DNA from: an uncultured Actinomyces sp.
GTDB taxonomy: Bacteria > Actinomycetota > Actinomycetes > Actinomycetales > Actinomycetaceae
DNA: 64,000 nucleotides
Assembly: GCF_900541895.1 (NCBI RefSeq)
Contig: NZ_UWSI01000001.1
Reading direction: 5' to 3' (one strand)
Shown: piece after piece, positions 11,937-13,153 of the stretch
How the letters are laid out: the number at the start of each line of letters is the position of its first letter
How positions within the stretch are numbered: the first letter of the stretch is position 1
Position numbers and translations under genes: made by a program
Notes under the pieces: generated by a model
The model's input: only the letters and a program-made list of their open reading frames with translations
What the model was told of the DNA's origin: nothing
Databases searched by the model: none

Positions 11937-12632
11937 ATGTCTTCATTGAATATCTATTGTGACGAAAGCACTCATCTGCCTAACGACCAGAAGCCTTTTA
12001 TGGTTTTAGGTGCGATTACCTGTCCAACTGAGCGTTCACGGGAAGTGGCAGTTCAACTTCGTAAGATAAGAGCCAAACACCACATTCCAAGTGAATTTGA
12101 GATCAAATGGACTAAAGTTTCTCCTGCGAAAGTAGATTTCTACCTAGATGTTATTGACTATTTTTTCGATGACGACGACCTCAATTTTAGGGCGGTAATT
12201 GCGTCAAAACAGAATCTTGATCATGGTCGTTTTAACCAGACTCATGATGACTGGTATTACAAGATGATGTTTTATCTTCTCCGCAACGTCCTTCCCCCAC
12301 AAGAACAGGCGTTCATATACCTAGACAAAAAGGATACGAACGGTAAGCAGAAGATTGACAAACTTCGAACCGTCATAGCGAACGCTGAGTATGACTTTGA
12401 TCGACGTAACATTCGACGCTTGCAGATCGTAGAGTCCCACCATGTCGGATTGCTTCAGCTGGCTGATCTGATCATTGGTGCAATTAACTATGCGAACCGT
12501 GGCGAGGTTGGAAACCCTGCAAAAATGAGGCTTATTGAAAGGATTCGGGAGCGTTCTGGTTTAAGCCTGACTTGCACGACCCTTCTTTCTGAAATGAAGA
12601 TGAACCTCTTTCACTGGAAGGCACAGGAATGA
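11937..12632 (+). CDS. DUF3800-like protein (island cargo gene 1)
   Basis: Strong GGAGG RBS 7 nt before ATG 11937. The protein MSSLNIYCDESTH...HVGLLQLADLIIGAINY has the DUF3800 signatures (N-terminal I-Y-x-DES and C-terminal QLADL). Codon usage and GC are clearly lower than the surrounding genes. Confidence 0.6.
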   Translation: MSSLNIYCDESTHLPNDQKPFMVLGAITCPTERSREVAVQLRKIRAKHHIPSEFEIKWTKVSPAKVDFYLDVIDYFFDDDDLNFRAVIASKQNLDHGRFNQTHDDWYYKMMFYLLRNVLPPQEQAFIYLDKKDTNGKQKIDKLRTVIANAEYDFDRRNIRRLQIVESHHVGLLQLADLIIGAINYANRGEVGNPAKMRLIERIRERSGLSLTCTTLLSEMKMNLFHWKAQE

Positions 12633-13153
12633 CATCTTGCCCGCCTTTCCCTATTGAATCTGAATACGATCCAAATTCATCTTCTTGCGACGAATACATA
12701 GACCACATTTATCAAATCTTTTTGAAAGACTTAATCAAAAGCCCCCTATGTTGGAAAAACAAAAATACTCACGTAAGTCTTCGTAGAAACCCCGAGGTTG
12801 ATGGCCGACATCGAGTGTTTTGGCATGTCATTTCTGGAGGCAGCAATACTGAAGAAAACCGCCAAATTGATTTCGAACGATGCCGAAGGATCCGCTGGAT
12901 CCGCATTATAATCGAATTGTTCAACAACGACTTCCCAGCCGAAACTGACATCTGCTGGTGGATCGACCAAAAGCGTGCGCACCGTGACCGCTATGTCATT
13001 ACGAGGTCAGAATTTGACTACATTGTCGTTATTGAAGAGTGCAATGGCTATGCTCTCCTCGTCACGGCCTACTATGTAGAATACGAACACCGAAGGCGAA
13101 AGCTGAGGCGTGAGCACGACGAATACTGGCGAAAGCAAGAGCCGCTCACTTAG
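12629..13153 (+). CDS. hypothetical 174-aa protein, translationally coupled partner of the DUF3800 gene (island cargo gene 2)
   Basis: Its ATG overlaps the upstream stop (ATGA). It is AT-rich and Cys/His/Trp/Arg-rich (…CWWIDQKRAHRDRYVITRSEFDYIVVIEECNGYALLVTAYYVEYEHRRRKLRREHDEYWRK). I recognise no family. Confidence 0.5.
   Translation: MTSCPPFPIESEYDPNSSSCDEYIDHIYQIFLKDLIKSPLCWKNKNTHVSLRRNPEVDGRHRVFWHVISGGSNTEENRQIDFERCRRIRWIRIIIELFNNDFPAETDICWWIDQKRAHRDRYVITRSEFDYIVVIEECNGYALLVTAYYVEYEHRRRKLRREHDEYWRKQEPLT

Follow-up and report, generated by a model that had tools for sequence, protein, structure and literature searches.

What do two overlapping genes of low guanine-plus-cytosine (GC) content do beside a tRNA gene of an uncultured Actinomyces sp., and how did they get there? 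The pair occupies positions 11937 to 13153 of a 64,000-nucleotide stretch of contig NZ_UWSI01000001.1 (assembly GCF_900541895.1), which we refer to throughout as the window. An earlier note on this DNA had proposed the two genes as a candidate for an undescribed defense or abortive-infection module. Here, we identify them as a copy of the cassette known as rlfA-rlfB in phage P1 and as the predicted defense candidate PDC-M04 in PADLOC, and we weigh the possibility that they act as a two-protein, nuclease-based module against phages and other mobile elements.

Identity of the gene pair

Gene A (11937 to 12632, plus strand) encodes a 231-amino-acid (aa) DUF3800 protein, and gene B (12629 to 13153, plus strand) encodes a 174-aa protein without a Pfam family. 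The two meet in an ATGA stop-start junction at 12629 to 12632, in which the TGA of gene A (12630 to 12632) overlaps the ATG of gene B (12629 to 12631); from this overlap, translation of gene B is predicted to be coupled to that of gene A. The junction had been read correctly in the earlier note, as had the strong ribosome-binding site before the first gene (AAGGAGG at 11925 to 11931, 5 nt 5' of the gene A ATG). A longer reading of gene A, starting at 11859, was rejected: homologs start at MSSLNIYCDES, and the gene callers used on metagenome contigs give 231 aa. GC content is 44.5% in the pair versus 56.7% in the window outside the islet that contains it, and GC at third codon positions (GC3) is 46% and 51% in the two genes versus 56 to 60% in neighboring genes. 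The low GC content relative to the host is therefore real, although the earlier value of about 60% for the host was slightly high.

Gene A matched the PADLOC model PDC-M04A with an E value of 2.4e-90 (residues 1 to 230 on model positions 1 to 229 of 232), and gene B matched PDC-M04B with an E value of 9.8e-77 (residues 7 to 173 on model positions 4 to 171 of 173); 11 further PDC-M04B models also matched gene B. Hidden Markov model (HMM) E values of this size (rounded, 2e-90 and 1e-76) place both genes far beyond chance. Their arrangement, A then B, adjacent and on one strand, is that of the PDC-M04 definition. In tblastn searches of phage genomes, RlfA of phage P1 was 46.7% identical to gene A (E value, 3e-53), RlfB of P1 was 37% identical to gene B (E value, 3e-8), and RapA and RapB of phage P7 were also homologous to genes A and B. 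Judged by these sequence matches, the identification of the pair as an intact RlfAB/PDC-M04 cassette is secure. The statement that the partner "matches nothing" does not hold, as gene B is a clear member of the RlfB/PDC-M04B family. Nor is the module undescribed, since rlfA-rlfB was annotated in P1 in 2004 and PDC-M04 is already a PADLOC candidate. The locus is a further copy of a catalogued cassette and not a discovery in itself. The equivalence of PDC-M04 and P1 rlfA/rlfB was not found stated in searchable papers, and NCBIfam has no model for either protein.

In the 2004 annotation of P1, rlfA and rlfB are adjacent, share a stop-start overlap, follow kilA-repL, and are described as "possibly associated with lytic replication." PDC systems were defined from cassettes that lie within BREX, DISARM, or type I restriction-modification loci; these cassettes were searched across RefSeq, curated, and then added to PADLOC (Payne et al., bioRxiv 10.1101/2024.01.29.577857). 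The supplementary table of that study lists cassette CAS_00034 with 679 RefSeq homologs and the remark "Assign as candidate PDC-M04," so the suggestion that the window pair is a defense candidate agrees with a prior prediction by others. The window pair resembles P1 rlfA-rlfB (P7 rapA-rapB) in near full-length homology and in gene order, strand, and stop-start overlap, and the copies in P1 and in the window are both low-GC accessory cargo of a mobile element. They differ in host (an Actinomyces-like actinobacterium here, an enterobacterium for P1) and in setting, the window copy lying in a chromosomal remnant and the P1 copy in a working phage-plasmid; in addition, no repL/oriL or C1 operator lies near the window pair. 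PDC-M04 as catalogued shares with the pair the full-length model matches and the adjacency of the genes, but it was predicted from BREX, DISARM, or type I restriction-modification loci, whereas the window pair has none of these systems at its flanks.

The DUF3800 hallmarks that the earlier note saw in gene A are well founded. The protein matched Pfam DUF3800 (PF12686) with an E value of 3.9e-16 and 60.5 bits, against a gathering cutoff of 21, and its motifs C8-D9-E10-S11 (CDES, residues 8 to 11) and Q174-L-A-D177 (QLAD, residues 174 to 177) recur in homologs: among 13 of them, C8, D9, E10, Q174, and D177 are invariant and S11 is nearly so. The invariant residues of RlfA include C8, D9, E10, and H13; E55, K57, and W58; D130, K132, and D133; and Q174 and D177. 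This residue pattern appears to fit the published prediction for DUF3800, in which the carboxylates of an RNase H-like fold are rearranged (Altae-Tran et al. 2023, PMC10910872; Mestre et al. 2020, PMC7736814). The metal-dependent, nuclease-like site suggested in the earlier note is in line with that prediction.

RlfA has in common with other DUF3800 proteins the Pfam domain, the N-terminal D-E motif, and the RNase H-like fold predicted for them, and it is likewise linked to defense and mobile elements. Elsewhere, type VII retrons have DUF3800 as an accessory protein or domain, TPR-DUF3800 proteins neighbor Cas12a2 and Cas12a3, and Csx32 of Cas13 CASK loci is a DUF3800 protein; eleven RNA motifs (DUF3800-I to -XI) also adjoin DUF3800 genes. 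RlfA differs from the retron-associated proteins, which lack the Q of QxxD, and from the RNA-motif systems in that its partner is the protein RlfB and not an RNA. An Rfam scan of 10500 to 15500 returned a tRNA alone, and neither the window nor 10 related loci contained a DUF3800 RNA motif. Near the pair there was no Cas gene, TPR domain, or reverse transcriptase, the last also being absent from the genes called nearby.

For RlfB, a structure model built from 20 close homologs was poor (predicted local distance difference test [pLDDT] score, 57), whereas one built with 143 diverse sequences was confident. The weak structural neighbors of the model are RelE-like, type II toxins. Foldseek searches of the model against PDB and BFVD gave no significant nonhomologous match, and a PDB sequence search with the B profile gave no match. 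RelE/ParE Pfam families were matched by none of the 143 RlfB members, and comparison of the RlfB profile with RelE and YafQ in hhalign gave a probability of ≤1.3%. A Pfam DUF1231 hit to gene B was discarded, being below threshold and not common to the family. RlfB has the conserved residues H66, R78, R84, C85, and R87 and the conserved motif FWH...R...RCxR...W. The BECR-fold RNases (RelE/ParE/YafQ/HigB, colicin D/E5, CdiA-CT, BrnT, and RegB) resemble RlfB neither in sequence nor in profile; they are half its size, and its motif is not a known RelE-family motif. RelE-type toxins are paired with a small antitoxin, whereas the partner of RlfB is a 231-aa DUF3800 protein. In PHROGs, the RlfB family bears the label "replication protein," which was taken over from the P1 annotation.

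A two-gene unit across phages, plasmids, and chromosomes

The two genes travel as a unit and are almost always adjacent, with an overlap of 1 to 4 nt in most loci examined. Gene A lies directly upstream of gene B in 9 of the 9 genome loci recovered with B. Searches with HMMs of both families found 97 loci carrying A, of which 96 were informative, the other stopping at a contig edge; in all 96, B adjoins A. The question posed in the earlier note, whether the genes are conserved together, is thus answered positively in every informative locus, with B following A. A 4-nt or 1-nt overlap between rlfA and rlfB recurs in Arcanobacterium, Corynebacterium, Mobiluncus, Gimesia, and P1. In Bifidobacterium phage Bbif-1 (GQ141189; our locus L033, approximately 4700 to 5220), an unannotated rlfB (HMM E value, 7e-39) overlaps the stop of a gene annotated as "RlfA phagic protein." An open reading frame (ORF) with an HExxH motif (HELIH), a putative metallopeptidase, comes after rlfB in this phage.

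Relatives of RlfB comprise 1075 cluster representatives, from Actinobacteria, Proteobacteria, Planctomycetes, and Chlamydiae, and are always stand-alone proteins of ~160 to 175 aa without a Pfam family; relatives of RlfA occur in 143 IMG/VR viral contigs. The movement of the cassette takes in phages, phage-plasmids, and chromosomes of several phyla, and Bifidobacterium prophages are among its carriers. RlfA is better conserved than RlfB, with identities of 62 to 77% versus 47 to 62% for the same genome pairs. Orthologous loci have no conserved upstream nucleotide sequence except the ribosome-binding site, and the mobile unit therefore consists of just the two genes.

In one viral contig (IMGVR_UViG_2923491830_000001; L035, 8630 to 11900), an IS21-family element (IstA, 551 aa; IstB, 255 aa) splits rlfB and leaves rlfA intact. 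If this split is real and rlfA is expressed, RlfA alone would be tolerated in this single case. In phage vB_EcoM-813R1, rlfA appears to be disrupted; we discounted this case, as the truncation of repL in the same record makes assembly errors likely.

The pairs often sit beside known defense genes. In an Actinomycetaceae metagenome-assembled genome (MAG) (L010), HsdS, HsdM, and a Gabija-like helicase with an OLD-TOPRIM ATPase precede rlfAB, which is followed by one gene of unassigned family and Abi_2. In Gimesia maris (L115), rlfAB comes directly after HsdM-HsdS-HsdR on the same strand, and in Mobiluncus (L030), it adjoins Abi_2, with a Fic gene and a tRNA-Gly gene near. The copy in Arcanobacterium hippocoleae (L027) belongs to a prophage-like element in which Bro-N/ANT antirepressor genes, rlfAB, DNA_pol_A, DUF2800, and a single-stranded DNA-binding protein gene follow one another in this order, flanked by Gabija-like genes and a CTD11/MC7/DUF2326 cluster. 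The placement in defense islands about which the earlier note had asked is therefore seen at several loci, where the pair has type I restriction-modification, Gabija-like, or Abi_2 neighbors or lies inside a prophage.

The A. hippocoleae element itself is dense in defense cargo (L027, 1 to 9000 and 16000 to 20500), comprising a Gabija-like set of split AAA_15/OLD-TOPRIM plus UvrD helicase, the CTD11/MC7/DUF2326 cluster, and an N6/N4 methyltransferase. Some further copies lie near the 3' end of a tRNA gene: the copy in A. pluranimalium is 125 nt from tRNA-Leu (L006, 10647 to 10721), and another chromosomal copy is ~700 nt from tRNA-Gly (L008, 11180 to 11251). Their proximity to tRNA genes suggests repeated delivery by tRNA-targeting elements.

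Approximately 100 PLSDB plasmids carry the cassette, and nearly all of them are P1-like phage-plasmids. Eight regions of such elements are variable and low in GC content, and rlfA-rlfB-pmgF counts among them, as do res-mod and sim (PMC9603915); some of these elements have the rlfAB region deleted or replaced (PMC6906374). Both genes of P1 were non-essential in a CRISPR interference screen (PMC10695390).

The islet at the tRNA-Thr gene

In the window, the pair lies between two imperfect direct repeats of ~150 nt, to which no strand is assigned. The left copy (11191 to 11340) is just upstream of the start, at 11157, of a lectin gene; the right copy (14629 to 14780) runs exactly up to the 3' end of a tRNA-Thr(TGT) gene (14781 to 14856, minus strand). 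The tRNA gene, whose presence near the pair the earlier note had recorded, was found by ARAGORN and by Rfam (tRNA, 69.5 bits), is intact, lies outside the repeat, and is 1.6 kb downstream of the pair. Repeat finding and pairwise alignment matched 11191 to 11315 with 14629 to 14753 (91%) and 11302 to 11340 with 14742 to 14780, and each copy contains a terminator-like hairpin, the left one at 11331 to 11310 on the minus strand. Because the right copy ends at the tRNA 3' end and the tRNA itself is unduplicated, the repeat seems to be the spacer that originally separated the tRNA and lectin genes; one possibility is that this spacer was duplicated by Campbell-type recombination through a captured copy of it. 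Adjacency to a tRNA gene, flanking direct repeats, and deviant GC content are all present at the islet. The description of it as "integrase-associated" is contradicted by six assemblies of the same locus, in which no integrase was found in the islet or among called genes within 10 kb on either side, and the stretch from rpoB to 10 kb beyond the tRNA had none among its ORFs and called genes.

The 596 nt upstream of the pair (11341 to 11936, plus strand) are non-coding and end in the ribosome-binding site; they contain no conserved feature, no Rfam match, and no consensus promoter. Downstream, and convergent with rlfB, is the frameshifted remnant of the C-terminal part of a family A DNA polymerase gene (13254 to 13551, minus strand), a pseudogene that matches residues 314 to 359 and 364 to 410 of the A. 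hippocoleae DNA_pol_A protein in two frames (tblastn E value, 2.7e-11) and also, weakly, a PHROG DNA polymerase family. In A. hippocoleae, the same convergent rlfB/polA layout is intact (L027, 10620 to 11855). The low-GC stretch from 13690 to 14250 (~0.6 to 0.7 kb), which has short ORFs only and no match in Pfam or in phage or plasmid collections, is presumably further decayed cargo. A short SdpI-like ORF or fragment follows at the islet end nearest the tRNA gene (14247 to 14555, minus strand; Pfam SdpI E value, 1.5e-5; 25.5 bits, below the cutoff of 28.2); gene calling on one metagenome assembly made it an SdpI gene of 121 aa. At the nucleotide level, the islet had no match in searches of phages and plasmids. 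From its contents between the repeats, we regard the islet as a decayed, 3.3-kb prophage-like remnant in which only rlfAB is intact.

The pair has remained intact next to a polymerase gene that is now a frameshifted stub. It is 98.0% identical, without gaps, to the pair in a related Actinomyces MAG, while the islet flanks are 93 to 94.5% identical with gaps, and the locus recurs with an identical B protein in many metagenome assemblies. This retention fits selection on the pair; the substitutions relative to the closest relative (13 in A and 11 in B) are too few for a ratio of nonsynonymous to synonymous rates (dN/dS). An empty site or variable islet within the species was sought via a flanking protein, and every contig that reaches the site carries the islet.

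The neighboring lectin gene (7783 to 11157, minus strand) encodes a secreted protein with repeated ricin-B lectin domains. The protein is 1124 aa long in the window and 1228 aa long in same-species assemblies (L012, L013, and L015), and we therefore interpret the difference as a length polymorphism of about one repeat.

Defense and its alternatives

The best explanation that we can offer for the intact rlfAB cassette in its prophage-like remnant, and one to which we give about an even chance, is that the cassette acts as a two-protein, nuclease-based module against phages or other mobile elements. We favor it because of the co-inheritance and coupling of the two genes, their restriction-modification, Gabija-like, and Abi neighbors, their place in variable accessory parts of prophages, the non-essentiality in P1, and the retention of the pair after its carrier decayed. 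By analogy with type VII retrons, we infer that RlfA might be the effector and RlfB a sensor, regulator, or second RNase. RlfA would be a metal-dependent, RNase H-like enzyme acting via D9/E10, D130/D133, and Q174/D177, with RNA or RNA-DNA hybrids as its probable target. RlfB would be its obligatory partner, produced in step with it by translational coupling, and could either sense infection and control RlfA or be itself a small RelE/colicin-D-like RNase built on H66, R78, R84, C85, and R87. We speculate that the module, once activated during infection, would stop either the cell or the invader, as in abortive infection.

Several observations weigh against a defense function. The copies in Corynebacterium (L029), A. 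pluranimalium (L006), and locus L117 are bare two-gene insertions amid housekeeping genes. Replication genes neighbor the pair in P1 and in the actinobacterial element, and a C1 operator lies upstream of it in P1; this is also compatible with a function in lytic growth. All 145 PDC systems are predictions that their authors declare untested (bioRxiv 10.1101/2024.01.29.577857); our literature search found neither PDC-M04 named in the main text of any paper nor a report of defense, toxicity, or nuclease activity for any RlfAB/PDC-M04 member. As for the proposed nuclease, PDB sequence searches with gene A and the A profile gave no match, nor did the RlfA profile match E. coli RNase HII in hhalign.

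One alternative is an accessory role in phage replication. RlfA would be a phage-encoded, RNase H-like enzyme that, with the help of RlfB as cofactor, processes or removes the RNA primers or R-loops of a phage origin, and the window copy would be the leftover of a dead prophage. The position of the P1 pair directly after kilA-repL/oriL and its annotation as "possibly associated with lytic replication" speak for this, as do transcriptome work that groups the pair with early replication genes, the DNA_pol_A, DUF2800 nuclease, and single-stranded DNA-binding protein genes beside the A. hippocoleae pair, the polA remnant at the same position in the window, and the PHROGs label. That label, however, only repeats the P1 annotation; the genes are non-essential for P1, and among P1-like plasmids their region varies or is missing. 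Many copies are also without nearby replication genes, lying instead beside restriction-modification, Abi_2, or housekeeping genes, and the window pair is intact while the polymerase has decayed. We consider a replication function improbable. We assign a similarly low probability to an addiction module of the toxin-antitoxin type that stabilizes its carrier and has no dedicated anti-phage role, in which RlfA followed by a RelE-like RlfB would correspond to the order antitoxin, then toxin. Two small, overlapping, strictly co-inherited genes are what such a module would look like, its carriage on the low-copy phage-plasmid P1 and on prophages and its persistence after the surrounding element decayed would make sense, and the weak structural neighbors of RlfB are type II toxins. 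But the upstream protein, a 231-aa enzyme-like product better conserved than its partner, is unlike a labile antitoxin, no DNA-binding antitoxin domain was found with Pfam, RlfB has no sequence-level link to RelE/ParE, and in the single case of the viral contig with the IS21 element, it is rlfA that is intact and rlfB that is split.

The cassette might instead be a weapon on the side of the phage, that is, an early lytic counter-defense or inter-phage competition factor that degrades, for example, host defense RNAs or the hybrids of retron multicopy single-stranded DNA (msDNA), the chromosomal copies being domesticated or left over. Its presence in 143 IMG/VR contigs and ~100 P1-like plasmids, its position next to antirepressor and other early genes in P1, Bbif-1, and the Arcanobacterium element, the C1 operator upstream of the pair in P1, and the links of DUF3800 to retrons and non-coding RNAs would all agree with this. 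It accounts poorly for chromosomal copies that, in surroundings free of phage genes, directly follow type I restriction-modification operons or lie between Gabija-like and Abi_2 genes, and for a window copy kept without a functional phage, and we regard it as the least probable of the alternatives. Returning to defense, the proposal also has a bolder form, which we find unlikely, if less so than these three alternatives: RlfAB might be a widespread, hitherto unrecognized kind of two-enzyme immune or abortive-infection module in which an RNase H-like DUF3800 nuclease works with a distinct protein of RelE/colicin-D-like RNase fold, where other systems have an antitoxin, an RNA, or a Cas effector, and which P1 would use against competing phages.

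The cassette is common, with 679 RefSeq cassettes and 1075 RlfB cluster representatives from several phyla. Our analysis yielded as by-products the link between PDC-M04 and P1 rlfAB, a confident RlfB model with weak RelE-like neighbors, and a case of a pair outliving its carrier. The first of these makes the function of the cassette testable in the best-developed phage-host system, and a functional result in P1 would bear on the DUF3800 proteins of retrons and of Cas12 and Cas13 loci. If RlfAB is a two-enzyme immune module, this would give P1 rlfA and rlfB their first function and would provide the first biochemical handle on DUF3800.

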